The translations under genes were made by a program, and so were the position numbers. From Ignavibacteriota bacterium (GTDB taxonomy: Bacteria; Bacteroidota; Ignavibacteria; UBA10030), in contig CAVSHO010000007.1 of assembly GCA_963727825.1 (NCBI GenBank), positions 96,001 to 160,000 on the forward strand: a stretch of 64,000 bases of DNA, in the 5' to 3' direction. Shown here piece after piece: positions 24,262 through 51,193 of the stretch; position 1 is the first letter of the stretch, and each line of letters starts with the position of its first letter. The notes under the pieces are model-generated. The model searched no databases. It was not told the DNA's origin and saw only the letters and a program-made list of their open reading frames with translations.

Positions 24262-25677
24262 ATGCAAAGGCAGAGTCATAACATTTTACAATACTCATTT
24301 TTGAAGTTGAATGCATTTTATGATGAGGAGCATGGATATGCACTACCCTCAATTCTTTTCCTCATAACAATACTTTCAGTTGTTATTCTTTCTATCCTCG
24401 CATTACAGTATTTTCAGTGGCAGAATATCCAAACAAACATAGCAAAAATAAAAGCGGATTATTCTGCACAAAGCGAAATATCAAAAATATTTTCAGAACT
24501 GAAATCAAGATCTGATTTGCCGATGATTGGACAGACAATTGGGCGAAGTTATGACTTATCTGACGGTGAGAAGGCGAGTGTAACTGTTGAATGGTGGGGT
24601 TTCTATTTATTTGTGCATTCCATTGGATCATTCAGAAAGATTAATGAAACACGTTATGCACTCGTGGGCCAAAAACCGATAGAACGATTTAAGAACGCTT
24701 TGGTATTTTCCAATAAGAGCCATCAATTAGTACTAACAGGATCGACGCACATCAAAGGAGATGTTCTGACGGGACCTGCAGGTGTTTCGATTGGAACGCT
24801 TGCAAATTATCCAACTCCACGAATAATTCCAATTGATGGGAAGATAAAACGTGACCCGAAAATAGATGTACAAGATTTCGATATTACAAAACAATACAAT
24901 TATTTTGACGCGTTATTGAAAGGTACGCTTCCGCAAGGTGCTGAGCAATGCAGCATTCAGTATTTCCAATCGGAATCGCAGCTTCATATTTCAAGTGGAA
25001 TCATCAAACCAGAAACAAGATATATGTTTGTAAAAGGAAACGCTATCATAGACAGCGCATTGATTCGTCGCGAAGTCCCTCTCAACATTATCATTGACGG
25101 GGAAGTAATGTTTGGTGCAGATGTCCATATTGATGGATTAGTGTGTATTGTGTCTTCTAAAAGTGTGAGAATCAAAAACATTGCACATATCAACGGGTCT
25201 ATATTGTACAGCCGCAAGGAAATTACTGTCGAGCCTGATGTGATTCTTACAGCGCAGATCATTGCACCATCAATTCAGATTGAAGAAGGGGCAAAGATGT
25301 CATATCCTTCCACTTTGATTTCGTATGTAAAAAAAGATAATAATGAGCCACAAAAAGGAATCCAGATGAAGAATGGTGCACAAGTCGAAGGTACCGTAGT
25401 CGTTTATGCAGAAAACAACACGCAGAACAATGTATTTTTAAGTATTGAATCAGCGGCAAAAATATCCGGATTTATTATCTCGAATACACCAATTACACTT
25501 GATGGTTCGGTCGATGGATGTGTGCAGACAAAAGATTTTTATTTCTATCAATCACCTACGACGTATTTAGGTTGGTTGAGGAGCGCGCGGATTGACAGAG
25601 AAGCATTGCCAAAGAGTGCATTAATGACTATCGGAATAGATAGTTTATCGCAGTTACAAGTCTTAGATTGGCTTTAA
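24262..25677 (+). CDS. GspK/PilX-like large minor pseudopilin with beta-helical C-terminal region
   Basis: Class III signal GYALPSILFL (no E5, as in GspK/PilX); repeated I.G.V/L hexapeptide-like motifs; first gene of the cluster. Confidence 0.6.
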   Translation: MQRQSHNILQYSFLKLNAFYDEEHGYALPSILFLITILSVVILSILALQYFQWQNIQTNIAKIKADYSAQSEISKIFSELKSRSDLPMIGQTIGRSYDLSDGEKASVTVEWWGFYLFVHSIGSFRKINETRYALVGQKPIERFKNALVFSNKSHQLVLTGSTHIKGDVLTGPAGVSIGTLANYPTPRIIPIDGKIKRDPKIDVQDFDITKQYNYFDALLKGTLPQGAEQCSIQYFQSESQLHISSGIIKPETRYMFVKGNAIIDSALIRREVPLNIIIDGEVMFGADVHIDGLVCIVSSKSVRIKNIAHINGSILYSRKEITVEPDVILTAQIIAPSIQIEEGAKMSYPSTLISYVKKDNNEPQKGIQMKNGAQVEGTVVVYAENNTQNNVFLSIESAAKISGFIISNTPITLDGSVDGCVQTKDFYFYQSPTTYLGWLRSARIDREALPKSALMTIGIDSLSQLQVLDWL

Positions 25678-25846
25678 ATAATGAAACTGCTAAGCGTTTT
25701 TAGAAAAAGAGGAAATATTCCCTCTCCTTTAGGAGAGGGTTACTTGTCCGCCGGTTTTTGGGCGGAGGGTGAGGTTAAAAAAACGCACGATAATTTTACT
25801 AAATGGCAGTGATTTTGTTTATAGAAAATTTTAAGACTGCATATAT

Positions 25847-26200
25847 ATGAAATCTGGATTTAATATAGGAACCGAACGTGGGTATACACTAATAGAGACC
25901 GTCATTGCTATGGCTCTTTTTCTAAGCGTTCTTATTCCGCTGATCGGAACCATGGGAACAATGATGTTTGACAGGAAAGCTATGACGGCAACTAAAGCGC
26001 TTATGTTGGCTCAATCGGAAATGAGTACTACTATTGCCCATCAGGATTATATCGATGCGATCAAAACATCTGAGCCCGGATTTATTTTTACAAAAAATAT
26101 TGAACGGTACAATTCGCTGATAGAAATCAGAGTGGCTGTAAAATTATCCTCCGATCAATCAAAAGAACTTATTGTATTGAAGAAAATTATCTATGAATGA
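25847..26200 (+). CDS. Minor pseudopilin (GspI/PilV-like)
   Basis: RGYTLIETVIAMALF prepilin motif. Confidence 0.75.
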   Translation: MKSGFNIGTERGYTLIETVIAMALFLSVLIPLIGTMGTMMFDRKAMTATKALMLAQSEMSTTIAHQDYIDAIKTSEPGFIFTKNIERYNSLIEIRVAVKLSSDQSKELIVLKKIIYE

Positions 26201-26217
26201 TATGAATAAATATTATT

Positions 26218-26304
26218 TGTCATGCCCGCCGATTTTAGGCGGGCATCCAGTGCCTGGACTCCCGATAGTCCCGATTGAAGACATCAATCGGGACGGGAAT
26301 GATA
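26218..26304. repeat. REPIN-like element (GTCAT(G/T)CCCG family) with nested palindrome
   Basis: TGTCATGCCCGCC..GGCGGGCATCCAG..TGGACTCCCGATA[GTCCCGATTGA..TCAATCGGGAC]GGGAATGATA; related to 29500-29578. Confidence 0.65.
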
Positions 26305-26324: not shown

Positions 26325-26846
26325 TTGTCTATGAAATTTTTTACTGTCATAAAACGAGAAGATGGCTTTACAATACAAGAAATTCTTGTCGTTCTTATTG
26401 TGGGATCGATTCTTATAGGATTAAGTTTCTCGTTGTTTTTGTTCACTAATAAACTTTTCCAAACATGGTCAGGCACAAATGACTTGAAAAACGAGACGAA
26501 TCGAATTCTCTATCAGATGGCATTTGATATTCAACAATCGAGAGAAATAGCCGAACATACAGACACGAGCTTTGTGCTATCGAGAAGCGTAGGCAGAGTT
26601 GTTCGATATAGTTATAACGGTAAAACTTTAAGGCGAAACGATGTCGAGTTAACTCCACGGAAAGCAGCGCTATTAAGAGTAAAGGTGGTAGAAGAACATA
26701 CATTCGGTGGAAGTTTAGATAACTCACTTCTTTTTCATATTACAGTACTCGTTCAATCGGTAGCATTAGATTACGCGGCAGAGATAGACGCAACGCCCGC
26801 GCCAAGTTCGCGTTCGTTATTCGTACGAACCTTAAATCATCAATGA
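26325..26846 (+). CDS. Minor pseudopilin (GspJ/PilW-like)
   Basis: DGFTIQEILVVLIV prepilin motif. Confidence 0.75.
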   Translation: MSMKFFTVIKREDGFTIQEILVVLIVGSILIGLSFSLFLFTNKLFQTWSGTNDLKNETNRILYQMAFDIQQSREIAEHTDTSFVLSRSVGRVVRYSYNGKTLRRNDVELTPRKAALLRVKVVEEHTFGGSLDNSLLFHITVLVQSVALDYAAEIDATPAPSSRSLFVRTLNHQ

Positions 26847-26859
26847 AAAACGTCATACT

Positions 26860-27972
26860 ATGAAACAATCAGCGGCCAATAACAAAGAAGAAGGATTGTT
26901 TAATACGATACATCGAATTCGAGGGCGTAAGCGCGTTACGGAAAAGGAAAAGTCGGAATTCTCGACACAACTTGCAGTGATGCTGCAGGCAGGCGTTTCG
27001 CTGCATCGATCGCTCGACGTGCTTGCACGACAGACAAAGAGCGAGAGATTAAAAGAGGTTATATCAAATCTTTCCAATGAGATTAGAAAGGGGAATTCGT
27101 TTGCTCGCGCGCTTGCAGCGCAGCAAGATGTCTTTGATAGTCTTTTTGTGGTAACGGTAGAGGTTGGGGAGGAGAGCGGCAGATTGCCTGAAGTATTGGC
27201 GCAATTAGCAACTCACCTTGAAAAAATGAACGCGCTCAAACGCAAATTTCGACAAGCTCTTACTTATCCTGCGCTAGTACTTTCTGTTTCCATCTGTGCA
27301 GTTTCGTTCTTACTGGTATTCATAGTACCAGCATTTGCTGAGATGTTTAAAAGTTTTCAGATCGAGTTGCCCTATTCAACGAAAATCGTTCTTTCATTAA
27401 GCGAATATTTTATCAAGTATGGACTGTACATCATACTTTTAATAATTCTGGCGATAGCGGTCTTGAGAAGAGCAATCCTTAGTCCGAAGACAAGGCAAAA
27501 AGCTGAACAATGGATTCTTAAAATTCCGATTGCGGGTGAGGTAGTATTAAAAAATTATGTTGCACGATTTTGCCGTACGCTTGGCACATTGCTTCATGCA
27601 CAGGTGTCTCTTGTGGACGCGTTAGGCGTTACACAAAGAATATTTACGAATGATAATGTGCGAGAGGAAATTGATTCTCTATTGAAGCATGTAAAACAAG
27701 GACGAACCGTTGCCGAGCCGTTGGTGGAATCAAAGCTTTTTCCGCCCATGGTAGCGCAAATGATCGCAGTAGGAGAGGAAACAAGCGAGCTTGACACAAT
27801 GTTGCTCAAAGTTGCAGATTATTATGAGAAGGAATTGGATGCAAAAGTTGAAACTCTTTCTTCCGTCATTGAGCCTGTGATTATTTTACTACTGGGAATC
27901 CTTGTAGCGTTGATCCTGATATCAATGTATCTGCCGATGTTCGATCTGGTCAACGTAGTTGGAGGTGGATAA
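26860..27972 (+). CDS. Type II secretion/T4P platform protein (GspF/PilC)
   Basis: QLAVMLQAGV, GEESGRL, ALTYP, RFCRTLGTLL, GEETSELD, EPVII, MYLPMF. Confidence 0.92.
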   Translation: MKQSAANNKEEGLFNTIHRIRGRKRVTEKEKSEFSTQLAVMLQAGVSLHRSLDVLARQTKSERLKEVISNLSNEIRKGNSFARALAAQQDVFDSLFVVTVEVGEESGRLPEVLAQLATHLEKMNALKRKFRQALTYPALVLSVSICAVSFLLVFIVPAFAEMFKSFQIELPYSTKIVLSLSEYFIKYGLYIILLIILAIAVLRRAILSPKTRQKAEQWILKIPIAGEVVLKNYVARFCRTLGTLLHAQVSLVDALGVTQRIFTNDNVREEIDSLLKHVKQGRTVAEPLVESKLFPPMVAQMIAVGEETSELDTMLLKVADYYEKELDAKVETLSSVIEPVIILLLGILVALILISMYLPMFDLVNVVGGG

Positions 27973-27979
27973 AAAAGGG

Positions 27980-28134
27980 GTAGAGTTCATCTCTCAGATG
28001 GACGATTTAATGCACCGACAAAATAAATATTCGACGAAGCGTCAGACTCTATAACTCGGTGTAGAGTCCCCGCCAATGCTTCGACTTCGTTCAGCATTAC
28101 AGCGAGTAAGCCGCCAGAGGGCATGGCGGGTAAG
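27980..28134. repeat. Nested REP cluster
   Basis: GTAGAGT..ACTCTAT inverted ends (27980-28052), a second GTAGAGT at 28061, then two tandem CCGCC..G(C/G)G(A/G)GTAAG micro-elements. Confidence 0.5.
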
Positions 28135-28237
28135 TAAGATGGAGTGTCGAAGTAAAATTCCTGCATAAGATATTCAGAATGAAGATCAAACTCTCAATAT
28201 TGAATTCCAATTTCAGCTTTCGTATCTTTATACCAAC

Positions 28238-28537
28238 ATGCAATTGAACAATATTTCATATAATCAAATTGAACCAATTTGCCGAAAATATTATATCCGA
28301 AAACTTGCGGTCTTTGGCTCGATGTTGAATGATACTGCTCGTCAAGACAGCGATCTCGATCTCTTAGTAGAATTTCTTCCTGATCATACTCCTGGTCTAG
28401 CATTCATTGCTATACAAGATGAATTGGCGAAATTATTCCAGCGAGCTGTAGATTTGCATACATCGGAAAGCCTGAGCCGTTATTTCAGGCACAGTGTCCT
28501 TCAAGAAGCGGCAACGCTCTATGGACATAACCAATAA
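28238..28537 (+). CDS. Minimal nucleotidyltransferase (MNT antitoxin)
   Basis: IRKLAVFGS, SDLDLLVEF, VDL. Confidence 0.85.
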   Translation: MQLNNISYNQIEPICRKYYIRKLAVFGSMLNDTARQDSDLDLLVEFLPDHTPGLAFIAIQDELAKLFQRAVDLHTSESLSRYFRHSVLQEAATLYGHNQ

Positions 28538-28725
28538 ACATCCAACAATCCCTTGGCAATGAAATAATCGGAACGAGAAACCGTCTCATTCATGGGTATG
28601 ATGATGTGAATCTTGATATCCTTTGGCAGATCGTTAGTGTGGATTTATTACCTCTTCCTTCTATCCTCCTTAATGTGCTTCAGCAGGTAGAAAAAACAGA
28701 ACAACAACGCCTATTTCCGCATTAA
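28521..28725 (+). pseudogene. Truncated, frameshifted HEPN (DUF86-like) toxin
   Basis: KHPTIPW / NEIIGTRNRLIHGYDDVNLDILWQIV with the Rx4H motif; N-terminal half absent. Confidence 0.75.
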
Positions 28726-28869
28726 AGAATTTTTATTCTTTTCTTTCACTAAAGTTGCGGTTATAGCTCTCTCCTAAATGAAGAATGTACGTGTAGCGTA
28801 TTCAGATAAGCATTTCATAGTTGGACGATTGATACGTATCGTTATAAGTCCGGCGAATCGCCGAACCCC

Positions 28870-28949
28870 GTTGTGAGGGAGATGCTCTCCCGAACCGAAA
28901 GGAAGTACACTGTACCAAACAAGGTCGGAAGTTGGAACTCCCTCCCAAC
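28870..28949. repeat. REPIN of the RAYT-2 family
   Basis: GTTGTGAGGGAGATGCTCTCCCGAAC ... GGTCGGAAGTTGGAACTCCCTCCCAAC, matching 46446-46525. Confidence 0.75.
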
Positions 28950-29069
28950 ACAGGGTCATTTTATTTTTCCCGCACACTGGACTTTTATCAGACGAGTCTG
29001 CATATTTAGAAAAGATTCGTCATCATCCTTCCGAAAAAAGAAAACAAGATATTTTCCAAAAGAGGTATT

Positions 29070-29483
29070 ATGAAAAAGCATCGTACTCATTTCAATAATC
29101 GGGGTTTCTCTCTCACAGAACTCATGGTCGTTCTCGTCATCATCGGTGTGCTGGTATTGCTGGCTTTGCCGAAATTGCTGCCGCTGGTTACGAAGGCAAA
29201 AACAACCGAAGCAAAGTTAATGCTGAAACAAGTAATCACATTGGAACAAAGTTATAAATTTGAGAATGATCGCTACTCAGCTTCTTTGTCTGATATCGGT
29301 TTTGAACAAACGAAATTAATCAGCGAAGGCGGGCAGGCTCGTTACAAGATCGAAATCGTCTCGGCAGATGAGAAGAGCTTTGTTGCCATTGCGACTTCGA
29401 CTGTCGATTTCAATAATAATGGCGTATTCAATGTATGGGAGGCAGATCAGACAGGTGCTATTAGAGAAAAAGTGCTGGACTAA
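29070..29483 (+). CDS. Major (pseudo)pilin, GspG/PilA-like
   Basis: RGFSLTELMVVLVIIGVL..LALP, KAKTTEAK. Confidence 0.88.
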   Translation: MKKHRTHFNNRGFSLTELMVVLVIIGVLVLLALPKLLPLVTKAKTTEAKLMLKQVITLEQSYKFENDRYSASLSDIGFEQTKLISEGGQARYKIEIVSADEKSFVAIATSTVDFNNNGVFNVWEADQTGAIREKVLD

Positions 29484-29499
29484 AAATGACCCATCCTAG

Positions 29500-29578
29500 T
29501 TGTCATTCCCGCGAAAGCGGAAATCCAGACTTGCGGTTTGTAGAATAGACTCCCGATAGAAACATTCGGGAGTGACAA
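29500..29578. repeat. REPIN-like element GTCATTCCCGCGAAAGCGG..
   Basis: TTGTCATTCCCG..CGGAAATCCAG..ACTCCCGA..TCGGGAGTGACAA inverted ends. Confidence 0.7.
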
Positions 29579-29639
29579 AGTATTTTTTAAGATGGCTACT
29601 TGCAGCTAACAACTCAACAATCATCATTGATGTTTATCC

Positions 29640-30431
29640 ATGTTCGAATTAACTATCATCATATCATTGCTTGGCTTATCACTTGGAAGTTTCATCAATG
29701 TTTGTGCGTATCGTATACCACGTGGTATTTCAGTGTTCTTGCCACGATCTTTTTGTCCTACTTGTAATCATTCACTGATGTGGTACGAACTTATTCCTGT
29801 TGCTGGTTATGCGCTTGATCATGGCCGCTGCCGGTACTGTAAAGAACATATATCTGCCTCTTATCCGATCATCGAAATAATAAGCACTGGAATTATTGTT
29901 GCCTTGCTATTGAAATATAGCCTGACACTCGAGTTTGCCCTCTCATCGATCTTCTGCCTGCTGATGCTTCTTATCGCAATTATCGATTGGAAGCATCTCG
30001 TCATTCCAAATCAGATCGTAATCGTTGGATTTATCTTGGGTTTGGCGATAAAAGCACTTGTAAACAGTACTATACTTGTGAATGCAATAATTTCATCGAT
30101 AGGATCGTTAATTATGGTTGCGATCATCCTCCTTCTCTCAAATCGTTTCTTCAAGAAAAAAACAATGGGATGGGGAGATGTAAAATTAGCGGCCGTTATC
30201 GGACTTTTTCTTGGCTTTCAAAATTTTCTTATTGTCTTATGGCTTGCCGCAATTATAGGCACATTCTATGGGACTTTTATTGTCCTGAAAAATAATCATA
30301 AATCGCAAATCGACAATCGACAATTGAAAATTCCTTTCGGTTCCTTTCTTGCAATTACAGCTTGTGTTGTTCTTTATTTTCAAGATACAATTTCGGAGTT
30401 AATACAGTCATGGTTGACTTACGCACAATAG
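29640..30431 (+). CDS. pilD: Prepilin peptidase (A24, PilD/GspO-like)
   Basis: GSFINV..RIP, RSFCPTC, CRYC, IID, MGWGDVKL, IPFGSFL. Confidence 0.9.
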   Translation: MFELTIIISLLGLSLGSFINVCAYRIPRGISVFLPRSFCPTCNHSLMWYELIPVAGYALDHGRCRYCKEHISASYPIIEIISTGIIVALLLKYSLTLEFALSSIFCLLMLLIAIIDWKHLVIPNQIVIVGFILGLAIKALVNSTILVNAIISSIGSLIMVAIILLLSNRFFKKKTMGWGDVKLAAVIGLFLGFQNFLIVLWLAAIIGTFYGTFIVLKNNHKSQIDNRQLKIPFGSFLAITACVVLYFQDTISELIQSWLTYAQ

Positions 30432-31895
30432 AAGTTCCAACTGAAGTACTTAACCTCATTCCAAAACAAACTGCTATCGATTTATCAGTGCTTCCATTGC
30501 ACGTGGAAACAGACGGGGTTGTCATCGCTATGACGGAAGAGACAGTTTCCGCGGTACTAGCGGACTTGATGTTTCTTCTGGGCAAGAAGGTAAAGCCCGA
30601 GATTGTTCCTGAGGCTGAACTCACCGATGCCATTCGTCGCCTTTATGGAGTTTCGGAATTTGAAATGTCTCGATCCGCAGCAAGTGATTCGCACGTTATT
30701 TCTTTTCATGATGAAGAACGGATAGAAGAACTTTCGTCCGATGGATCTGTTGTCGATCTTGCAAATCGTATTATATCAGATGCTGTCAGGATGGGAGCAA
30801 GCGATATTCACGTTGAGTCGTACGAACGGAAGTTTCGTATTCGATACCGCATCGATGGAATTCTGCACGAAATTCTTCATCCATCAATGGATAAATCGAG
30901 GCCGCTTGTTTCCCGCTTAAAAATCATGGCTGACCTTGATATTGCTGAGAGGCGGCGCCCACAGGATGGACGTATTCGCGTGAAAGAGGGAGATCGCGTT
31001 ATCGACATTCGCGTGTCCACGCTTCCGACAGATTTTGGAGAAAAAGTTGTACTTCGCATTCTTGATAAATCACAGCTTCAACTCGACTTGGGAAAATTAG
31101 GATTCGAACAGCGAGATTTAGATATGTTTAAAAAAAATGTGCATCTGCCATATGGGATGGTTCTTGTGACCGGTCCTACAGGAAGCGGCAAAACCACTAC
31201 GCTTTATGCCGCACTTAATTATATCAATCGTCCAGAAACAAACATTACTACTATTGAAGATCCGATCGAGTAACAATCTTGCCGGTATCAATCAGACACA
31301 TGTGCGAGCAGACATTGGGCTAACATTTGCCACGGCGCTGCGTTCGATTCTTCGGCAGGATCCGAATGTCATTATGGTCGGCGAAATTCGCGATGGTGAT
31401 ACAGCGGAAATCGCAATACGCGCTGCACTTACAGGTCATCTTGTGTTTTCTACGCTGCACACGAATGACGCGCCTTCTGCTATTACACGTCTCATCGATA
31501 TGGGCGTTGAGCCGTTCCTTGTTGCATCGTCTGTGAAGATGATTCTTGCACAACGGTTGCTTAGAAAACTTTGTCCGAAGTGCCGGGAACTTGTTAAACC
31601 TACTCCAGAGCAATTATCGGAATTGGGATTGGAGAATAAAGAAAAACACGATTTTTATATTCCTAAAGGATGTCCATCTTGCAATCGCTTTGGATACAAA
31701 GGGCGGACAGCTGTGTATGAAGTATTGCCGATTATTAATGGATTGAACGAAATGATTGCGCGCAATGTCACGGCAAACGAACTACGCCAACAAGCACAAA
31801 CCGAGGGACTTTTAAGCTTACGCCAAGCTGCAGTGGAAAAAGCGGAACGCGGTGAAACATCATTGGAAGAAGTGATACGGGAAACCGCAGGTTAA
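30410..31895 (+). CDS. GspE/PilB assembly ATPase, split by a +1 frameshift near 31272
   Basis: [31 protein letters not shown]-(Y)NLAGINQ, LRQDP, GEIRD, STLHTND, CPKC/CPSC. Confidence 0.9.
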
Positions 31896-42100: not shown

Positions 42101-43647
42101 ACTATCAACAATAAAGACAGCATTAATTTTGTTTATGACAAAGATGGATTGCTTACCAATGCAGGAGCGCTCAAGTTAAAATCGAGTACAGCAAACAACT
42201 TGTTACTAAGCGATACTTTAGGAAATGTAGTGACCAACTATATCTACAATTCTCTTGGAGAAATAGCAAGTCAGCAATCGCTTTTCGGCTCGGCAGTTTT
42301 ATATCAAGTGAATTATACCAGAGATAGTTTGGGAAGAGTTTCTGAAAAGGCTGAAACAATTCAAGGCATAGCAACAAAATATGATTATGTATATGATGTC
42401 AAAGGACAACTTTTGCAGGTATCGAAAAACGATACGATTGTTTCCACGTACACTTACGACCCAAATGGCAATCGTATTGCACACATGACCCCAATTTCTG
42501 CTGACAGTGGAACATATGATGTACAAGATAGATTACTCACATACTCATCGACTCAATATCTATATTCTCAAAATGGCGACCTAAGACAGAAGATAGTGGG
42601 CACCCGCCAAACAGACGGCGGGCAAGCAGACACGACCCATTACGACTATGATGCTATGGGGAATCTTCTTTCCGTGGTTTTGCCAACGGGTACACGTATT
42701 GATTACATTACAGATGGAGCCGGTCGTCGTATTATAAGAAAAACTAATGGACAAATTACAAATCGATGGTTATACTCTGATGAATTGAGAATCAGTGGAG
42801 AAGTCGATAGCGTTGGAAACGTTGTGAGTCACTTCGTCTATGCGACAAAACAAAATGTGCCGGAGTATGTTTTGAAAGGTAGTATTGCTTATAGAGTTGT
42901 GACAGATCAGCTTGGAAGTGTAAGGCAGGTGATCAATTCAGCTACAGGCCAGGTTGTTCAGCAAATGGATTATGATGAGTTTGGAAACGTAACCAACTCC
43001 AGCGGTCAACAAATTGTGCCAATGGGGTTTGCTGGAGGGATATATGATGCTCAAACGGGACTAACAAGGTTTGGGGCAAGAGATTATGAAGCCAGTGTTG
43101 GAAGATGGATGGTAAAGGATCCGATATTATTTGCTTCAAACTCAATGAATCATTATGGTTATGCAGGAAATAATCCCATAAATCTTTTTGATATAAGTGG
43201 TAATTCTGATCTTTGGGGGAAGCTATTGCTGCTTTTACATTTGCGGCATCAACGACAAGCCTGATAAATGATATTTGGGAATACGTTAATTCAAAGGGAA
43301 GCGATATTGGTGCAACAATAGGGCTTTATGCTGATACATGGGGTATGGGTGCAAGTGTGATTAATTTTGCTAAAGCGGCAAGAGAATACGAAAATGTCGG
43401 TGATGTTAGAACTGATCCTTTAACAGCTCTTATTGAAAAACTTGGCGGAAAAATTAATGTCTGTAATTTTACAGAAACAATGGTATCAGCTGCGATGACA
43501 GCTCAGTTTGCACATACCATGGATCTCATGAGTAAGGGTTCTAACTTGAGAGCAGCGGTTTGGACATTATCTGCTCTTGCCACTCTTCAAGCCGGTATAA
43601 ATTGCTGGATCGTTGCTGAAATGAATTTAGGAAAGCAAAAAAAATAA
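33107..43647 (+). CDS. Giant secreted teneurin-like Rhs/YD protein (signal peptide, 16 Ig-like repeats, TTR-like, FN-plug, NHL propeller, YD shell, Rhs core, C-terminal tip); tip separated by a frameshift at 43215-43219
   Basis: Signal peptide ..FCAEA; repeats delimited by R..D..PP (~33500-37655); VIRGKVLDG..GSTISRDDGMYDLAVNGG; WDGKDAYG; GGWSLSLHH; AGTG..GYSGDGGPA; FGARDY..GRW..KDP..NPINLFDISG. ORF 33107-43264 joins 43213-43647 if G5 becomes G6. Confidence 0.88.
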
Positions 43648-43668
43648 ACATCAAAAGGAGTTAAAATT

Positions 43669-44160
43669 ATGTTCATTATAATTAATGGCATTTTTTGTAT
43701 TGCATTGATGGTATTTTTGAGTCGTTCGTCAAACAAGCCGGCACGAATTGATGGAACAAGCGGTAATATTATTCTCTATTGTGGTGCCCGTTATATAGTT
43801 TTTGCTTTTATTGGATTTTTATGTGCTTTTGATATTCTATACATATTCCATCCTATTCTCGGAGAAATTACTTTGAATTCTATAATAATTTTCCTTCCTG
43901 TGGGTGCATGTATTTATGGTGGATTAAAAATGTTTCTTATGGCGAGGCGCTATGAAATTGAACTGACCCACGATGCAATTATTGAGAAGCAAATAATAAG
44001 GAAACCAGTCAAAATTGAATGGGAAAAAGTAAAGAAAGTTCTTAATATCAACCGTGGTGTCGAAATATATAGTATTGAGGGAACAAAAATTAGAATTCCT
44101 CAAACGATGGATGGATATTTAACTCTTCTTAAAGTAATAGAAGAAAAGCATCCTAGATAA
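43669..44160 (+). CDS. Membrane protein, candidate immunity protein
   Basis: RBS AAGGAG; 21 nt after the Rhs tip; three TM segments plus a PH-like C-terminus (IEWEKVKKV..KIRIP). Confidence 0.55.
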   Translation: MFIIINGIFCIALMVFLSRSSNKPARIDGTSGNIILYCGARYIVFAFIGFLCAFDILYIFHPILGEITLNSIIIFLPVGACIYGGLKMFLMARRYEIELTHDAIIEKQIIRKPVKIEWEKVKKVLNINRGVEIYSIEGTKIRIPQTMDGYLTLLKVIEEKHPR

Positions 44161-44164
44161 ATAC

Positions 44165-44470
44165 CTTGTTCCCAAATTCTCCGTCCATAAAACGGCGGAC
44201 AAGTATTTGGGAATGGAAGGTTTGAAGCTCTGCTTCAGAACTAAGGATGTTAACAGAACTTGGAATAACCGAGTAATGGTTGGGAGAACATCAAAGATTT
44301 AGTAAGCAGTATCGGGAGTGTACCTCTCCGATCGCTGGGAGCGGTCGGAGAGGTGGTACCAAGTTGTGAAGGAGTTCCGCTCAAAGATAAGGCATGGCGG
44401 ATAAATGCACTCCTGAACTAAAAAGTGAAACAAATAGAATGGTCGAGAATTAGAACTCCCTCACAGCTTA
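44165..44470. repeat. REP/REPIN cluster upstream of the rhomboid gene
   Basis: TTCCCAAAT..ATTTGGGAA, GAAGCTCTGCTTC, TACCTCTCCGA..TCGGAGAGGT, and a RAYT-2 REPIN at 44361-44470. Confidence 0.75.
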
Positions 44471-44525
44471 GAGGCGCTTAGTGGTATTCCAAAATACTTT
44501 ATATAACCTACAGTAAGGTAATACA

Positions 44526-45674
44526 ATGCTCCTTGTACCATACAAAATGGAGACAACGTTCACGCGAATCCCGTTTACGAATGCGGCAATTATCGTTGTG
44601 ACGTCATTGATTTTCTTCCTTCCCTTTACAGGTGCTATTACATTTAATGATCTTGAACCTTTTGTGTTAAAAGACTGGGACTTCAGCCAACTGATAGGGA
44701 GTGCATTTTTGCATGGAGGTTTCTTCCATCTTCTTGGCAATATGCTTTTTTTATGGATTTTTGGTAACGCTATCTGTGGAGCTGTAGGAAATATAGCTTA
44801 TCCATTTCTCTATTTGTTTCTGGCGATTATTTCCGGGTCAACTTATCTCATAATGAGTAGTCAACCAATGATTGGTGCAAGCGGCGCGATCAATGGTATT
44901 GTCGGTATGACACTTGTTTTTTTTCCGAAGAACCGTATCCATACCTTTTATTGGTTTTTTATTCCAATAATATGGCTTATCAAAACTGGAAAGTTTAAAA
45001 CGAAAACCAGTTGGATGATTTTGTACTGGCTTATCTTTGATATCTTTGGCGCCATGGCTGGTGGTGACGGCGTTGCGCACTGGGCACATCTCGGTGGATT
45101 TATGGGCGGAGTGATAGTTGGATTAATTTTATTACAATTCCATGTTATCGTTACGCATAGCCCTTCTTTATTGGATGTGTTATCAGGAAAGGCATCAGAT
45201 CCAGATGCGTTCAGCGATATGGATTTAGAGACTCTTGCCACTTCTCATAGAACACAGAATCCATCGAATGCATTGACGCCGGTCGAACAACAAAAATCTG
45301 CTGCCATAACAATGCAACCTTCCCAACCACAAGAGACACCTACTGTACCAAATATTCATCTCTCGCGATGTGTAGGTGAGGGAAGCCCTGTGACATGCTA
45401 CATTGTTAATAAAGGCGCAACTATAAAAAGCCCACAGCTGAAAGTACCGCAGGGAGTAACGGCGCTCATGAATTCAAAAATTGCACTGCGTACACGCGAA
45501 TCCGGATGGATTCGATTTTCCACTGATGATCAGAGTTCAATTGATAGCATAGAGTTCATTCTGGGATATAAGAACTCATTAAATGAGTTTCATAAAATGC
45601 GCTTTCGATGTATCCCATCGGCAAATACATTGACCATGATTTCGTCGACCGAGCCGCAAGAAAAAGAATTATAG
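44526..45674 (+). CDS. Rhomboid intramembrane serine protease with C-terminal soluble domain
   Basis: FLHGG..HLLGNMLFLWIFG, IGASGA, AHLGG. Confidence 0.88.
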   Translation: MLLVPYKMETTFTRIPFTNAAIIVVTSLIFFLPFTGAITFNDLEPFVLKDWDFSQLIGSAFLHGGFFHLLGNMLFLWIFGNAICGAVGNIAYPFLYLFLAIISGSTYLIMSSQPMIGASGAINGIVGMTLVFFPKNRIHTFYWFFIPIIWLIKTGKFKTKTSWMILYWLIFDIFGAMAGGDGVAHWAHLGGFMGGVIVGLILLQFHVIVTHSPSLLDVLSGKASDPDAFSDMDLETLATSHRTQNPSNALTPVEQQKSAAITMQPSQPQETPTVPNIHLSRCVGEGSPVTCYIVNKGATIKSPQLKVPQGVTALMNSKIALRTRESGWIRFSTDDQSSIDSIEFILGYKNSLNEFHKMRFRCIPSANTLTMISSTEPQEKEL

Positions 45675-45701
45675 TAGCCAAGCTTGGGAATGAGAACCCT
45701 C

Positions 45702-45862
45702 AATTGTGAAGAAGTCGAACTCCTGAACGGAGATAAGAGCGGGACAAGTGCAAGAAATTATGAAGGTGAACAAGGTTTATTTAATGTCCAAACAGATCCA
45801 AGTTGTGAAGGAGTTCCGCCATAAGATAAGGCATGGCGGATAAATGTACTCCTGAATTAAAA
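45702..45862. repeat. RAYT-2 REP copies
   Basis: TTGTGAAGAAGTCGAACTCCTGAAC (~45704) and AAGTTGTGAAGGAGT[30-nt insert]TGTACTCCTGAA (45800-45856). Confidence 0.75.
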
Positions 45863-45880
45863 TTGTTAAATAATTATACG

Positions 45881-46420
45881 ATGAGCCGATGGAAAATTAT
45901 ATCTGGCGTCAATCTCTTTTTTATCACAACAACTATTGTTGAATGGAGGAGCGTGTTTGTTGCTATCCCATTGTTTGAGACAATAATGGAAAGTCTAAAG
46001 TTTTGTCTTGCAAATAAAGAACTGCATCTACATGGTTATGTTATTATGCCCAATCATGCCCATTATATTGTTTCTAGTGACCCGCCGGAAAAGTTATCCG
46101 ATATTATGAGAGATTTTAACAGGTTCACATCTCAATGCATTACTGACGTTTTAGAAGAAATGCATAGGGATGAACTGCTTGAGATTTTTCACAAAGCTGC
46201 GATGGACGAAGGTCGTGGAAATCGATATAAAGTGTGGCAGGAGGGATTTCATCCTATTGCGATTGATACAGGAGCGTTTTTTCAACAGAAACTAGACTAT
46301 TTGCACGAGAATCCCGTACGGAAGGGATTTGTTGAGAAACCGGAATACTGGTGTTATTCGAGTGCAAGGAATTATCTTTTTGATGATCATTCAATTATCC
46401 CTGTTGAGTGTCTCGAATGA
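45881..46420 (+). mobile_element. REP-associated tyrosine transposase, RAYT-2
   Basis: FFITTTIVEW, GYVIMPNHAH, VWQEGFH, YLHENPVRKG..W.YSSA; REPs on both sides; the upstream ATG at 45833 lies inside a REP. Confidence 0.88.
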
Positions 46421-46445
46421 ATTGGGTCGGGAGTGCAACACCCCT

Positions 46446-46525
46446 AAGTTGTGAAGGAGTTGCACTCCTGAACTAAAAAGTGAAACAAATAGAATGGTCG
46501 GGAGTTAGAACTCCCTCCAAACTTA
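46446..46525. repeat. RAYT-2 REPIN (allele without insert)
   Basis: AAGTTGTGAAGGAGTTGCACTCCTGAAC..GGTCGGGAGTTAGAACTCCCTCCAAACTT; 39 nt identical to 44407-44445. Confidence 0.8.
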
Positions 46526-46591
46526 GTTTATTGAGAACTGAAATTTAAATATCGCTGTACTATATCAAAAGTACACACTTAGGGAGTGTTT

Positions 46592-48569
46592 ATGAAAAAG
46601 CGAGGCATAATTATATCTCTTGTCGTATCTTTTACTTTCATTGCGTATGGTCAGAAATCAGAACCATTTAAATCTCCCGAAATAAAAGCGCAGCAAGCAG
46701 ACACACTCAGTTCCAGTTTAGAGACTCCGGTTCCATTGCCGGATACAATTGCAATTAATAATCATGTTTTACCGCAAGGCGCTAAGGATACAACCACGCT
46801 GAGCTTCCGCGATACGGATTTAAGGGATATCTTCCGTGCACTAGCGGCAAAACATAACTTAAACATCTTCATAGATAATACAATCAACAAACATTCTACA
46901 ATCTCACTCTCCAATGTGCAAGTGTACAATGCAATCAAATTTATTTGCCAGCAGAATGATCTTAAGTTGAGCTTAGATGGATGTATCTTTAAAATTTTGC
47001 CTCAACCTCCTCCACCAAAAGCAGAACCGCTGCCGGCAAAAGTGCCATGGGTCTATTATGGTAATAATTTACTATCCGTAAAACTGAAGAATGACGATCT
47101 TGAAACATTTGTGCTGGAAATAGAGAGGAAGATGCGGCAAGAACATTCTTATCCTTAGCGGTACATCGGGAAATTTAAACGGCACATTAAACGATATCGA
47201 TTTTGATATAGGCTTTACGCAATTATTGAACAATAACGGTTTTGCTGTCCAGAAAAAAAATGGTGTATATATTGTCAGTCGATTGGAATATTTTGTCGGC
47301 CAGCAAACTCAAGGCGGAAGTCAAAAAGCAGGGCCGTATTGGATCAGTGTGCATGATTCATTAGTCACTGTTGACGTTACCAATGCGCCATTAGACCGTG
47401 TGCTGAGCGATATAGGCCGTCAGCTGAACAAAGATATGGTATTCTACAGTCAGGTCACTGGTAATATTACTGCACGGGCAACAGACATCCCGCTGGAGAA
47501 TGCCTTCAATCTCTTGCTCAGAAATTCAAACTTTACTTATCGTATTTCAGATGGAATGTATTTTATCGGTGAAAAAGCGAATAAGACGATGACCGCTACA
47601 AAGCTGCTTCGTCTAAAGTATCTGCGCGCAGAAAAAGTATTGGAATCCATACCTCAATCGATTACATCAATGGCTGTTTTAAAAGTTATCAAAGAACATA
47701 ATGGAATTGTCGTTGTGGGACCGAACGATATAATCACTCAGGCGGAAGAATATCTTCAAGCTATCGACAAGCCAGTCGCACAGGTGCTCATCGAAGCAAT
47801 TGTCGTCGATTATGACCGTACGAAAGGACTCGATCTCGGAGTAACTGCGGGGTACCTCGGTTCAAAAGATACAACTACATCATTCTCTCGCACCGATGCG
47901 CTTATTCCGGGAGTCAATATGATGTTCTCAGGTCCTACACTTAATAACGCTTTGAGCGCTATCGGTGCGACAAACCTCGGCAAGCTTCCAGCTGACTTCT
48001 TTTTAAATTTGAAGGCGATGGAACAAAGGGGAATTGCCAATGTAAAATCACGCCCCTTACTTGCAACACTCAACGGCTATCCGGCAATGCTCAGCATTGG
48101 TACGACGTTCTATTTCGAACTCACGACTACGACTCCTTTTTCGCAAAACCAAAACCAGACATACCTATCCACCAGCCAACAATTTACAACAGTTGAAGCT
48201 GACACAAAACTCGAGATTACTCCTTATGTCGGTTCTGACGGGCAGATCACTGTCGAAATAAAGCCCGACTTCAAAACACCGGTTGGTCAACCGATAAATG
48301 GAATTCCTCCTAACATCAACAGGCGTGCTATGTCTTCCACACTTGTGATGAGAGAAGGGGAGACAATCGTCTTGGGCGGTATGGTGCAGGAGACAGAATC
48401 CGAATCGCGCACGCAGGTGCCTATACTTGGTTCAATTCCACTGCTCGGATATTTGTTTTCTTCCACAAGTCATAGCACTAATAAATCGGAATTGGTAATT
48501 TACATCACACCGCATATTTCGTATGGTGAAGCGTTCCATAATGTGAGTCTGCCGGACCATGAAGAATGA
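46592..48569 (+). CDS. Secretin (GspD/PilQ-like), split by a +1 frameshift near 47132
   Basis: Signal peptide, LSFRDTDLRDIF N0-type domain; ID.PVAQVLIEA, LEITP, GETIVLGG, VPILGSIPLLGYLF, ELVIYITP; join at aag(a)tgcggcaag. Confidence 0.88.
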
Positions 48570-48808: not shown

Positions 48809-50203
48809 ATGAATATTTCCACTCTTCAAATAAGCCATATCAACTTCCGTCAATTAGCCGGTGCTAACCGTGTACTCGGTGTCGATCTTACGGAAAACTG
48901 CGTTCGTGTTGTTGAAGTGGAAGAACGTATACTACCACTTCGGAAATCGCAATCAAGATTCACAGTTCGCAATCATTTCATTCTAGAATATGATCCGGCA
49001 GCGGAGTGGCTAAAACGAGCAGATCTCCTGAAACAAAAATTAACCGGACTTGGAATTCGTGCGCGCTATGCAGCTACAAGCATCCGTTCTTTAGGCGTCA
49101 AAGTTGTTGAAACTACAATTCCATCCGGCATACACGCTTTTGATGAATGGATAACCGAGAATCAGGAAAAACTACTGCGAATTCCGTTAAACTCTGGAAG
49201 TATAACACATTGTGTAGAAATATTGGAACGGTCTGATTCAGGAACACGCGTAGAAATTACGTTTGTCCGGAGGGAAGAGATTGGACGCTACCAGTCGTTC
49301 TTTCGCACTGTAGGACTTGAGTTGATCACGCTCGGAGCAGGAACCCGCGATGCAAGCAATGTCATAACAACTGGAAAGAATTTCGGAGGGGAGAAAGAAA
49401 AATTCCTTTTTATTGAAGATGTTTCAGTCAACGTAACAGAATTTAAACAGGGGAGAAGGAATCGATCATATCAGACGGCGACACCATTCCAACAGACACA
49501 ATCGGAAGAAGCTTCAGTTTTTGTGTCTTGTGAAAAAGTCATAACGACAAATCTTGCCGATATACAAATCATTCAACCGCTTGGATTATCTCCAGAGTAT
49601 TGCCTCTCTGTCGGGTTAGCATTAAAAGCTCTGAATTCTGATCTTAGTCCGACTAATCTTTTGCCGGCAGAAGAGACAAACCGTATCGAAGTGAATTTCC
49701 ATAAATCTTTTTTCCAGAGGGCAATATTATTTTTAGGTGCTGTTTTGATTGTTCTGCTCATCATCCCATCTGCTCTGGAAGGCTATTTAGATTGGCGATC
49801 TAATAAACTAGACGAGCAATTGTCGGCAAACGTCAGTTCCTACGCTGAGCTAAAACTTCTGGAAACCCAAACACGCGATCTTGAAAAACAGCTCGGTGAA
49901 GCCAACACTTCGGTTCGTTCTTCCCATACTGCAAAGTTATTGCATAACATTGCAAGCGCAAGTCCGGAAGGGCTGTGGTTATACAAAATCAAATTAGATG
50001 CAGAAACCAAGGGAACATCAAAGTTGTCTCTTTTCGGATATACACTTAAAAGTGAAAAAGTCACTGACTATTTGAAGAATCTCAACGGTCTCGGTTATGA
50101 AGCAAATTTAATTCGATCTGGAAGTCCTCAACAAAATGAAACGTTGATTCCATTGCGAAAGGACGCCGTATCATTTGAAATAGCAATACAACTAAGGAAT
50201 TAA
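48809..50203 (+). CDS. PilM/PilN (GspL-like) fused alignment protein
   Basis: VLGVDL..VRVVE actin-like start, AL..NLLP + TM + coiled coil + PEGLWL..LSLFGY PilN-type domain. Confidence 0.7.
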   Translation: MNISTLQISHINFRQLAGANRVLGVDLTENCVRVVEVEERILPLRKSQSRFTVRNHFILEYDPAAEWLKRADLLKQKLTGLGIRARYAATSIRSLGVKVVETTIPSGIHAFDEWITENQEKLLRIPLNSGSITHCVEILERSDSGTRVEITFVRREEIGRYQSFFRTVGLELITLGAGTRDASNVITTGKNFGGEKEKFLFIEDVSVNVTEFKQGRRNRSYQTATPFQQTQSEEASVFVSCEKVITTNLADIQIIQPLGLSPEYCLSVGLALKALNSDLSPTNLLPAEETNRIEVNFHKSFFQRAILFLGAVLIVLLIIPSALEGYLDWRSNKLDEQLSANVSSYAELKLLETQTRDLEKQLGEANTSVRSSHTAKLLHNIASASPEGLWLYKIKLDAETKGTSKLSLFGYTLKSEKVTDYLKNLNGLGYEANLIRSGSPQQNETLIPLRKDAVSFEIAIQLRN

Positions 50204-50204
50204 A

Positions 50205-50741
50205 TTGACTGGCAAACGAAAATATCAAATAGGAATAACAGCGATAGGAGTATTGTTTATCTACCTCCTTTTCACAGAAGTTTCAGGTCGATGGAGTGAA
50301 GCATATCGTTCTTATCGAGAGTTCTCAGCGAAAGAGGAGAGCGTCCTTAATCCCGATGAACTTGCGCAACGTACTATGGACTTACGTGTAAAGAAAAGAA
50401 TTCTTACAACACAAATCACACGTGCAAACGAGGGATTTGAGCAAAGCCAAATAGGAGTTGTGCGCTTAATTCAAGCTCGAGCAAAAGAGAAGAATATGTA
50501 TTTGAGGATGATCACACCGTTGGAAACGCGTCCTGTCGGCCAGATGATCGAAATTGGATTTACTCTGGAGCTTTTAGGATCGTATCATCGATTAGGAAGC
50601 TATATTTCTTCTCTCGAGACCGGACCTATACCAATAAAAATAGTTAATGTTGAGGCGGTGAATCAACAGCCCGGTTCTACAGTGCTGACTATTTCTATTC
50701 AGGGGAAAGCGTTTATTCTGTCTAAGAATGTTTTGCAATGA
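50205..50741 (+). CDS. PilO/GspM-like protein
   Basis: N-terminal TM, coiled coil, LELLGSYHRLGSYISSLE. Confidence 0.7.
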   Translation: MTGKRKYQIGITAIGVLFIYLLFTEVSGRWSEAYRSYREFSAKEESVLNPDELAQRTMDLRVKKRILTTQITRANEGFEQSQIGVVRLIQARAKEKNMYLRMITPLETRPVGQMIEIGFTLELLGSYHRLGSYISSLETGPIPIKIVNVEAVNQQPGSTVLTISIQGKAFILSKNVLQ

Positions 50742-51193
50742 AGCCGAATAAATACATATTGCGATTGCTGGTGGTTGCGCTTTTGATTGTCTGGGGTCTC
50801 GTTGTATATGAAGTTATATCGGCAATTTATTTTGGCGAAGATAAGGAAACCAGCAATGCCGATAACCTGATAAAAAATAAAGGAAAAAGTGCAGAAACTT
50901 TCCTGTATGATGAAAATGTCAAAGATCCATTTCTATACTACGCCTCCAAAACTGATACAATGAAACGTGTCAGCACACCTAAACTGATCGCTCCGGTCTG
51001 GAATCCACCACCATTCCGCTTAAAAGGAATAATTGATGCGCGATCCGGCAAGATGGTGATTCTGGAAGATGGATCAGGTGAAACATTTTTCTTGCAGCGG
51101 GGAGATACCTTGCATGGAGTACATATTCTTGCCATAGAATCAAATCGTGTTCAATACGAATTTGAGAAAAAGAAATCGGATTGGCAGCTGTAA
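50738..51193 (+). CDS. PilP/GspC-like protein
   Basis: TM, KDPF, FRLKGII..MVILED..FFLQRGD..ILAI. Confidence 0.6.
   Translation: MKPNKYILRLLVVALLIVWGLVVYEVISAIYFGEDKETSNADNLIKNKGKSAETFLYDENVKDPFLYYASKTDTMKRVSTPKLIAPVWNPPPFRLKGIIDARSGKMVILEDGSGETFFLQRGDTLHGVHILAIESNRVQYEFEKKKSDWQL

Follow-up and report, generated by a model that had tools for sequence, protein, structure and literature searches.

Rhs-family toxin genes recur beside a type IVa pilus-derived secretin machine in FCB bacteria

If a toxin of the Rhs family carries a Sec-type signal peptide, by which route could it leave a cell with two membranes? This question is raised by a locus of an Ignavibacteriota bacterium (assembly GCA_963727825.1, contig CAVSHO010000007.1, positions 96,001 to 160,000; this whole stretch of 64,000 nucleotides is called the window, and coordinates refer to it unless another locus is named). 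Here, genes of a filament and secretin machine enclose a giant teneurin-like Rhs gene. An earlier note, made from the sequence alone, had taken the locus for a new system resembling type II secretion systems (T2SS) and type IV pili, built around a toxin-immunity cargo. By Pfam, NCBIfam, profile and fold searches we found the listed machine and cargo genes at 24262-51193, all on the plus strand. The gene list needed amendment in two respects: the ATPase gene, the secretin gene and the giant gene are each interrupted by one frame change, and four interspersed genes (encoding an MntA-like protein, an IS200 transposase, a rhomboid protease and a REP-associated tyrosine transposase, RAYT) had gone unmentioned. 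Each component of the locus is already known. The new element is the recurrent pairing of Rhs genes with the machine in bacteria of the Fibrobacterota-Chlorobiota-Bacteroidota (FCB) group.

Rhs-family genes beside related clusters

We tested co-localisation in 80 related loci, chosen by secretin similarity alone (based on an alignment of the window's secretin with 14 relatives) and taken with up to 10 kb per side. Except for a few oddly named bins, the metagenome-assembled genomes (MAGs) and genomes from which the loci stem are labelled as FCB-type. Open reading frames (ORFs) outside the core cluster were scanned with Pfam if they comprised at least 450 aa, if they were open-ended with at least 250 aa, or if tblastn had flagged them (172 ORFs; smaller unflagged ORFs lay outside the scan). 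Loci with an RHS_repeat or TEN_YD-shell match at E<=1e-5 were counted as Rhs-positive. This applied to 22 of the 80 loci (L001, L002, L003, L007, L008, L009, L011, L020, L025, L027, L034, L037, L042, L045, L052, L053, L057, L060, L064, L065, L069 and L075), seven of which belong to the 18 closest loci, with secretins at least 54% identical. According to MAG labels, the lineages of the positives include Ignavibacteria, Kryptoniota-related Bacteroidota, Rhodothermales, Zixibacteria, Cloacimonadota and Fibrobacter. L060, L064 and L065 come from relatives of Fibrobacter succinogenes.

The proportion of positives rose with the length of flanking DNA in view. Where 5 kb or more was in view on one side, 21 of 49 loci had Rhs genes; with that length on both sides 8 of 15 did, and with neither 1 of 31, so most negatives are short contigs. 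Rhs ORFs made up 116,670 of the 649,092 flank bases (18%), while Rhs elements account for about 0.8% of the E. coli K-12 genome. In 17 of the 22 loci, the nearest Rhs end fell into the cluster-closest third of the visible flank (binomial P=3.1e-5; Kolmogorov-Smirnov p=1.5e-4), a within-flank position control that is independent of genomic Rhs density. The gap between cluster and Rhs gene measured 46-660 bp in nine loci. Rhs genes are thus strongly enriched beside the cluster and close to its boundary, and the linkage withstood the refutation named in the earlier note, that orthologous clusters mostly have no Rhs/teneurin gene.

In 57 loci, 3 kb or more is in view upstream of the secretin gene, and in 38 of these the ATPase gene directly precedes it. 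A Rhs gene lies upstream of the secretin gene in 14 of the other 19 loci (the five without are L017, L028, L036, L063 and L067). Because the ATPase gene normally adjoins the secretin gene, the 14.7-kb stretch between the two in the window represents an insertion relative to most relatives. The Rhs gene is located on the strand of the secretin gene in 17 of the 22 positives and on the opposite strand in five (L020, L025, L042, L052 and L057). On a FastTree secretin tree with 81 rows, the Rhs-positive state changes 16 times, a count that missing data inflate; the presence of Rhs genes therefore does not go back to one inherited event. The positives also differ in the position of the Rhs gene and in its architecture, which is teneurin-type, DUF6443 with RHS, or RHS_repeat alone. 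We are confident that the linkage of Rhs-family cassettes with this machine across FCB lineages is real.

The idea of a teneurin cargo holds for the window, whose giant gene is itself teneurin-like, but not in general, as the teneurin type is a minority among the neighbouring Rhs genes. The full teneurin domain set was detected only in the window, in L007 and in the L001 protein P0129; for the latter it was taken from a precomputed Pfam list, and only the YD part lies inside the fetched locus. DUF6443 together with RHS was found in 13 of the 22 positives, and the rest, teneurin-type aside, had RHS_repeat alone. L002 encodes a partial ORF of Ig-like repeats only beside GspF, plus a DUF6443/RHS giant. 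Six complete or 3'-open Rhs ORFs start, as judged by eye, with a motif like the N terminus of SpvB/TcB, and a weak SpvB match was obtained in L003. Inspection by eye also revealed Sec-like signal peptides at 14 of 17 neighbouring giant ORFs, 16 of these 17 being Rhs-positive. Pfam detected no PAAR, VgrG, two-partner secretion (TPS) or type IX secretion system (T9SS) tail domain in the neighbouring Rhs ORFs, though T9SS-tailed proteins are encoded nearby. Likewise, no type VI secretion system (T6SS) domain was found in the giant protein of the window or in the scanned neighbours. Nuclease tips occur among the neighbours in L045 (WHH) and L039 (Tox-REase-7). In L034, a 2,511-aa Rhs gene is paired with a secretin gene alone.

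Further signs of Rhs genes came from tblastn only. L049 contains a stretch of Rhs repeats (E 5e-99), and short pieces of the Rhs core end were detected in L012, L015, L039 and L054. In L022, L031, L035, L037 and L046, edge ORFs match the N-terminal regions of Rhs giants. L031 and L035 are located on one 6.5-Mb chromosome (OY843751.1) and represent two paralogous whole clusters, each with an open ORF at the locus edge that resembles the N terminus of a Rhs giant. In the Fibrobacterota loci L047, L051, L055, L067 and L077, giant ORFs of 1,351-2,298 aa without a Rhs Pfam match stand beside the cluster. The giants of the first four have no Pfam match at all, and that of L077 has ricin/PA14 lectin domains. 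Since the giants of L047, L051 and L055 fall into the BLAST family of the Rhs giants, the count of 22 may be an underestimate.

A pilus-derived machine around a predicted toxin gene

The cluster of the window begins with the gene of a large minor pilin-like protein (471 aa, 24262-25677). AlphaFold2 (AF2) predicted an N-terminal hydrophobic helix (residues 27-79) and then a beta-rich domain, with a beta-helix head (pLDDT 90, alignment of 31 sequences). Its best fold match in the Protein Data Bank (PDB) was the Thermus competence pilin ComZ (6qvi, E 6e-5, TM-score only 0.20), followed by beta-helix ice-binding proteins. Pfam gave no N_methyl match for this protein, and homologues were found in 39 of the 80 loci. 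Two minor pseudopilins follow. The first (25847-26200) matches N_methyl with E 2e-4 and, partially and below the cut-offs, the NCBIfam models ComGE, XpsI and GspI; the second (26325-26846) matches N_methyl below the gathering score (E 5.5e-3) and shows weak NCBIfam matches to GspH and ComGF. Then come the GspF/PilC inner-membrane platform protein (26860-27972, Pfam T2SSF in two stretches, E 5.5e-60) and the major pilin or pseudopilin (29070-29483, N_methyl E 2.2e-8, weak ComP_DUS match), which is 67-82% identical in close relatives. The prepilin peptidase of family A24 (29640-30431; A24_N_bact E 1.5e-29, Peptidase_A24 E 1.9e-19) is followed by a PilB/GspE-type ATPase with an MshEN N-domain (30362-31895, Pfam T2SSE, two ORFs). 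As the earlier note had pointed out, the window shows no PilT: its scanned ORFs contain no second ATPase of the T2SSE family.

Downstream of the giant gene, the machine continues with the secretin (46586-48569, two ORFs), which comprises a signal peptide, STN/N0-type N-domains, Secretin_N and the secretin core (Pfam Secretin E 1.8e-41). Next is a PilM-PilN fusion (48809-50203, Pfam PilN E 1.2e-4). As a single sequence it found 0 matches in the PDB; a profile of 28 homologues matched PilM (3jc8_Ma, E 8.4e-17, positions 16-264) and PilN (3jc8_Na, E 1e-7, positions 347-443), with GspL at merely E 0.81. The PilO-like protein (50205-50741) reaches 19.9 bits in Pfam PilO, just under the cut-off of 22 (E 8.9e-4), and the position of its gene is conserved in relatives. 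The last gene (50738-51193) encodes a 151-aa protein with an N-terminal membrane helix and a predicted PilP/GspC-HR-like fold. Pfam gave no match for it; its AF2 model (pLDDT 79) matched PilP in Foldseek (3jc8_Pa, E 2.4e-4) and compared well with PilP 2y4y (target TM-score, TMt, 0.63; root-mean-square deviation 2.3 A) and with the GspC HR domain (3oss_C, TMt 0.82). Thus, an HR/PilP-type domain is present and a PDZ domain is absent.

All NCBIfam scores of the machine remained below the cut-offs (given in brackets), both for T2SS models (GspF 331.9 (424), GspD 163.8 (351), GspE halves 285 and 283 (630)) and for type IVa pilus (T4aP) models (PilB halves 312 and 292 (676), PilQ 168 (284), PilC 313 (700)). 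PilB ranked above GspE, and PilQ about equal to GspD. For a canonical Gsp T2SS, we found neither GspD, GspE or GspF at equivalog level nor a platform of GspC (HR+PDZ), GspL and GspM. A PilM-N/PilO/PilP-like platform stands in place of GspL/M/C, and the T4aP parts PilB, PilC, PilQ and PilM/N/O/P are all present by domain or fold, below the NCBIfam cut-offs.

Without its inserts, the window has a Cytophaga-type gene order: minor pseudopilins, T2S-F, T2S-G, peptidase, T2S-E, T2S-D and PilM/N/O/P-like genes. As far as the accessible text of PMC5553014 goes, the putative T2SS of Cytophaga hutchinsonii (chu_3191-chu_3201) has the same gene set, and the locus tags of Flavobacterium johnsoniae (Fjoh_0611-0622) follow the same order. 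The Cytophaga system is tied to cellulose use in that text (PMC5553014), and its likeness to the window is one of gene set and order. A Cytophagia-labelled MAG (L023) also has the cluster, with a secretin 46% identical, which is an indirect sign of orthology to the CHU_3195 and Fjoh_0618 proteins. Denise et al. 2019 report that the Bacteroidetes system consistently groups with T4aP and apart from T2SS, and suggest that a secretion system may have arisen here from T4aP independently (PMC6668835). They also call it peculiar and missed by T2SS models (PMC6668835), which agrees with the sub-cut-off NCBIfam scores here. By gene set and order, the machine therefore corresponds to the known "Bacteroidetes T2SS", a filament/secretin machine of the FCB type that goes back to type IVa pili, and it is not the new kind of system that had been proposed. 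It differs from the Cytophaga system in that Rhs-family genes abut the cluster in the window and in 22 of the 80 relatives.

The giant gene (33107-43647) encodes about 3,513 aa when read through. The protein comprises, in this order, a signal peptide, an N-domain of about 110 aa, 16 Ig-like repeats, TTR, FN-plug, NHL, YD-shell and a hydrophobic C-terminal tip of 143 aa. By eye, the signal peptide is of the signal peptidase I type (SPI-like), with an A-E-A/S site. Pfam detected Glucodextran_B in 16 stretches and, above the gathering scores, TTR_TEN1-4 (E 9.7e-20), FN-plug (E 2.8e-9), TEN_NHL (E 7.6e-17) and TEN_YD-shell (residues 2485-3342, E 1.4e-33); RHS_repeat matched with E 1.4e-11. The earlier note was right that PAAR, VgrG, TPS and T9SS-tail domains are lacking, since none is among the 13 Pfam families of the protein, and that a T9SS tail is carried by the product of 52161-53780 (Por_Secre_tail, E 4.9e-11). 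Given its TTR/FN-plug/NHL/YD-shell set and the lack of PAAR, VgrG, TPS or T9SS-tail domains, we assign the giant protein to the teneurin-like Rhs polymorphic toxins of bacteria. Residues 1550-2500 yielded 1,549 matches at E<=1e-3 among 8,000 scored candidates, and the sources of these matches are labelled as belonging to many phyla. Over the same residues, the L001 orthologue P0129 (3,116 aa) is 67% identical, and it shares the N-domain.

Bacterial teneurin-like Rhs proteins (TLPs, for example BiTLP) have already been described (Raoelijaona et al., Nat Commun 2026, PMC13018210). As presented in the accessible text, they have the same TTR, FN-plug, NHL and YD-shell domains as the window protein, a polymorphic C-terminal tip of about 15 kDa and a small downstream gene as candidate immunity gene, as in the window. 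The BiTLP tip is hydrophobic and permeabilises membranes (PMC13018210); the 143-aa tip of the window protein is also hydrophobic and is probably membrane-active. A TIP domain between TTR and FN-plug is reported there for 96% of TLPs (PMC13018210), and about 310 residues without Pfam match lie between TTR (1562-1644) and FN-plug (1956-2025) of the window protein. There are also differences. The legend of Fig. 1 in that paper names phyla without Bacteroidota or other FCB bacteria (PMC13018210). Gram-negative TLPs are predicted there to be lipoproteins with a signal peptidase II type signal (SPII; PMC13018210), whereas the window protein is SPI-like and continues with 16 Ig-like repeats. Unlike described TLPs, the window's gene sits within a pilus/secretin cluster.

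The tip is rare, with 2 matches among 1.84 billion representatives, and beyond the core end the tip of P0129 is unrelated to it. L001 further contains an orphan Rhs tip ORF (4797-6506 of that locus), to which the window tip shows a marginal similarity (29% over 125 aa, E 0.011). An exchanged tip on a conserved core and orphan tips in relatives are hallmarks of polymorphic toxins. At the core end, the window has NNPINLFDISGN (D-I-S-G-N) and relatives have D-Y-N-G, D-R-N-G or D-V-E-G. Compared to DPxGL, the usual motif of Rhs core-end autoproteolysis, Asp and Gly are retained and Pro is not. This sets the window protein apart from T6SS Rhs effectors, where DPxGL is the usual core end; they are also linked to PAAR or VgrG, while the window protein has neither and bears a Sec signal peptide. 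Shared with them are the YD shell around a variable toxin, the downstream immunity gene (putative here) and orphan tips (L001).

Only 22 bp past the toxin tip begins the ORF of a 163-aa membrane protein with a hydrophobic N-terminal half (43669-44160). It belongs to no Pfam or NCBIfam family, and none of the small ORFs that follow the toxin genes in L001 and L007 resembles it significantly (E 0.34-4.6). From its position alone, we regard it as a putative immunity protein. At the corresponding site in L001 (3235-4269), directly after the main teneurin-like gene where an immunity gene is expected, a 344-aa membrane protein with a signal-peptidase S26 domain is encoded (E 7.9e-22).

Inserted genes and surroundings

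Genes unrelated to the machine interrupt the cluster. Between the GspF/PilC and pilin genes lies an MntA-like nucleotidyltransferase gene that is not a machine part (28238-28537, Pfam Polbeta and NTP_transf_2). It matches NCBIfam MntA_antitoxin with E 8.8e-14 and 51 bits, below the cut-off of 60, and none of the 80 loci contains a match to it. An intact HepT-type partner is missing at 28238-28900, where the frame tried (28534-28900) has three stops; the gene looks like an orphan or decayed toxin-antitoxin module in a pilus cluster. An IS200/IS605 Y1 transposase gene (32204-32641; Y1_Tnp E 4.6e-29, transpos_IS200 95.6 bits, cut-off 55) is inserted between the ATPase gene and the giant gene.

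Two further genes separate the small membrane gene from the secretin gene. A rhomboid-family intramembrane protease with a C-terminal extension (44526-45674, Pfam Rhomboid E 3.8e-27) is 94% identical in L001, where its gene occupies the same place, and is absent from the other 79 loci. Its identity as a rhombosortase was ruled out (22 bits, cut-off 84). The RAYT gene (45833-46420, NCBIfam REP_Tyr_transpos 99.2 bits, cut-off 80) is absent at the corresponding place in L001. It is flanked by 32-nt REP-like (repetitive extragenic palindromic) repeats at 45697-45728 and 46442-46473, with a hairpin at 46422-46476. We considered a composite transposon formed by the two Y1-transposase genes of the cluster and rejected it: the first belongs to the IS200 type, and the second is a RAYT that has REP-like flanks of its own and is missing at this place in L001 (shared repeats were not searched). 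A third Y1-transposase-like gene (15474-16031) is found outside the cluster amid at least six palindromic units of the TGACCTTCGGAAGGT type (15418-16133) and looks like a REP/RAYT element. These units differ from the REP-like flanks of the RAYT gene at 45833-46420.

In three close relatives, the secretin and PilM-N genes are separated by inserted ORFs that span 3.5-9 kb (L012 11596-21000, L015 11371-14900, L016 2835-9117). They share a family of about 410-445 aa, which is transglutaminase-like in L016, and L012 additionally has Rhs core-end-like fragments.

The earlier note had described the locus as co-oriented. This carries no weight, because every sizeable gene of the window is located on the plus strand, and co-orientation is thus no evidence for an operon. 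A promoter/terminator scan of 27900-47300 gave counts like those of shuffled sequences (55 versus 55.6 and 16 versus 13.9) and was uninformative on operon structure. Cumulative GC skew climbs steadily across the window (1-64000), which fits one replichore with a very strong gene-strand bias.

An Rfam scan of the window detected three tRNAs only and no riboswitch. Two of these genes, for tRNA-Cys and tRNA-Leu, are 2.7 kb apart after the cluster (51491-54339), with the T9SS-tailed gene 52161-53780 between them. Since both are about 80 bp apart directly after the cluster in L001 (14134-14371), 52161-53780 looks like an insertion between the tRNAs. Upstream of the cluster, a CitMHS_2-type transporter gene (10941-12380, E 1e-139) is placed between nuoM and nuoN, in the normally contiguous nuo operon. 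At 16300-17990, a gene with HTH and an M78 (ImmA/IrrE-type) peptidase domain precedes a DUF4411/PIN-like gene, a two-gene module as in toxin-antitoxin or defence islands.

Proposed export through the secretin and its alternatives

What, then, could connect the toxin genes with the machine? Judged from synteny, transport of the giant Rhs toxin through the machine is somewhat less likely than not. To the general proposal, that the T4aP-derived machine of FCB bacteria is dedicated to carrying Sec-dependent polymorphic toxins of the Rhs family, teneurin-like proteins among them, across the outer membrane or to displaying them there, we give a rough probability of 0.38. The Rhs gene and the small membrane gene form a polymorphic-toxin cassette between the ATPase and secretin genes. 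The giant protein would cross the inner membrane by Sec and fold in the periplasm, and the pseudopilus would push it, or help it, through the secretin. It would then be released, or displayed at the cell surface on a long stalk of Ig-like repeats. Such a stalk could keep the toxin-filled shell away from the cell, the encapsulated tip could reach neighbouring cells, and the small membrane protein may protect the producer.

Models for a cargo encoded in the operon of its own T2SS or type IV pilus exist in SslE/YghJ of the E. coli T2SS-beta, PulA of the Klebsiella Pul system and TcpF of the Vibrio toxin-coregulated pilus (TCP). These cargoes are enzymes, lipoproteins and colonisation factors, not Rhs toxins, and their machines are Gsp-type or T4b-type. 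We favour export because the Rhs position is secretin-proximal, because the pairing in L034 involves a secretin only, because no other route is visible, and because described TLPs have no evident means of delivery (PMC13018210).

Several points weigh against export. Synteny alone is not transport, and the folded teneurin superfold, with YD shell and NHL propeller, is large compared to secretin channels. The measure of enrichment derives from the within-flank position control and the E. coli K-12 figure. Furthermore, no Pfam Rhs gene is in view in 28 of the 49 well-flanked loci (5 kb or more on one side). The Rhs ORFs of the Rhodothermales loci L020 and L025 and of L002 end within the YD repeats, without an obvious toxin tip. 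In the window itself, ATPase, secretin and toxin genes are all frame-broken, and real breaks would mean a dead system in this organism. The main text of the Cytophaga paper, supplements aside, does not mention Rhs (PMC5553014). Finally, the large minor pilin has a ComZ-like fold and the small pilins have partial NCBIfam matches to competence pilins; since the minor pilins resemble competence pilins, the machine may be a DNA-uptake or adhesion pilus.

This last point leads to an alternative that we consider rather unlikely: the machine would build a true pilus that serves adhesion, contact or DNA uptake, toxins of the Rhs family would leave by another route, and the genes would be kept together for contact-dependent killing, or for killing neighbours to release DNA for uptake. 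Competence-linked killing is known from Vibrio, Acinetobacter and Streptococcus. The machine is indeed T4aP-like rather than Gsp-like in its PilM-N fusion, PilO and PilP-like fold, in the NCBIfam ranking (PilB above GspE, PilQ about equal to GspD, all below the cut-offs) and, as far as the accessible text shows, in the branching of the Bacteroidetes system with T4aP (PMC6668835). Weak matches to ComP_DUS (major pilin), ComGE and ComGF (small pilins) and HofQ (N-terminal part of the secretin) point in the same direction, as does ComZ as the best fold of the large minor pilin.

In the competence pilus of Thermus thermophilus, this large minor pilin bears a beta-helix/solenoid head (6qvi) like that of the window protein, and PilM, PilN, PilO and a PilQ-type secretin are likewise present. 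However, the TM-score of the ComZ match is only 0.20. The DNA-uptake genes comEA and comEC were not among the Pfam-scanned ORFs of the window, and we know of no link of the Thermus pilus to Rhs toxins. A PilT-type retraction ATPase is missing from the window, and nuclease tips such as those in L045 and L039 would destroy DNA meant for uptake. The linkage statistics fit coupling as well as they fit export. Other points speak against coupling: Rhs genes are preferred directly upstream of the secretin gene (in the 14 of 19 loci without an adjacent ATPase gene), the secretin-only pairing in L034 points to an outer-membrane channel and not to a filament, and the domains of the Rhs proteins with Sec signals make no alternative export route evident.

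A second alternative is orthogonal to the others: the frame breaks could be real mutations, and the locus would then be non-functional in this genome, whatever it does elsewhere. The ATPase is divided into ORFs 30362-31273 and 31206-31895, with a frame change near 31270, and the T2SSE profile runs from position 3 to 181 in the former and from 183 to 370 in the latter. The secretin is divided into 46586-47158, with FecR_C/STN-like domains, and 47226-48569, with Secretin, STN and Secretin_N (Pfam); the frame changes near 47130. The giant ORF ends at 43264, and the tip resumes in another frame from a G5 run near 43215. Thus, three genes of the system are broken, and mobile-element genes lie within the locus. 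In relatives these genes are intact: the ATPase comprises 494 aa and is 90% identical, and the secretin is a single ORF of 633-737 aa (671 aa in L001, 9329-11344). The near-identical public protein P0123 continues through the toxin junction into the 143-aa tip.

However, nuoM (9369-10944, A6 run near 9700) and nuoN (12404-13835, near 13000), which encode subunits of respiratory complex I, are split likewise. This makes five frame breaks in 64 kb, housekeeping genes among them, and at least two coincide with homopolymers, an A6 run in nuoM and a G5 run in the toxin gene. Because nuoM and nuoN are broken in the same way within the same 64 kb, assembly indel errors are more likely than decay as the cause of the five breaks, and we regard a dead locus as unlikely.

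The least convincing alternative is that no functional link exists and the cluster borders are merely a tolerated landing or recombination site, where insertion bias and hitch-hiking place Rhs genes. Rhs elements are classic rearrangement hot spots. Unrelated inserts occupy several junctions, namely the MntA-like, IS200 and RAYT genes in the window and the 3.5-9 kb inserts in L012, L015 and L016. Gene order also varies among relatives: the minor-pilin/GspF block is upstream in the window and inverted in L002, while L004, L010 and L013 have it downstream. Yet the association is met again in distant lineages that differ in the architecture, position and orientation of the Rhs gene, so a single attachment site is hard to invoke, and the 18% Rhs share of flank DNA is far above known genome averages. 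A tRNA island was rejected as explanation, as tRNAs were found in only 2 of 26 scanned loci (L001 and L013), and only L001 has them right after the cluster, as the window does. Few integrase or transposase matches were detected in the large flank ORFs (DDE in L036, Mu-type in L042), and a mere hot spot is improbable.

In the literature, we found no paper on a link of Rhs proteins to T2SS or type IV pili in FCB bacteria (subscription-only papers and supplements aside) and no paper mentioning DUF6443. In the accessible text of Zhang et al. 2012, "T2SS" is merely a label for an export pathway, and neither secretin nor pilin is mentioned. No delivery machinery is evident for teneurin-like toxins in the accessible text on TLPs (PMC13018210).

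The pairing described here bears on how Rhs and teneurin-like toxins with Sec signals cross the outer membrane of diderm bacteria, and on the function and substrates of the peculiar "Bacteroidetes T2SS". Its occurrence in FCB lineages that include culturable Fibrobacter makes both questions open to knock-outs and secretomes. If the link is regulatory instead, connecting pilus contact or competence with killing, it would be a new example of coupled antagonism and surface filaments outside Proteobacteria. If export through the secretin is true, it would represent an unrecognised delivery pathway for Rhs proteins beside T6SS, the type VII secretion system (T7SS) and the Tc toxin/type X secretion system (Tc/T10SS) route, and would provide the delivery machinery that is still missing for the teneurin-like toxins of diderms.

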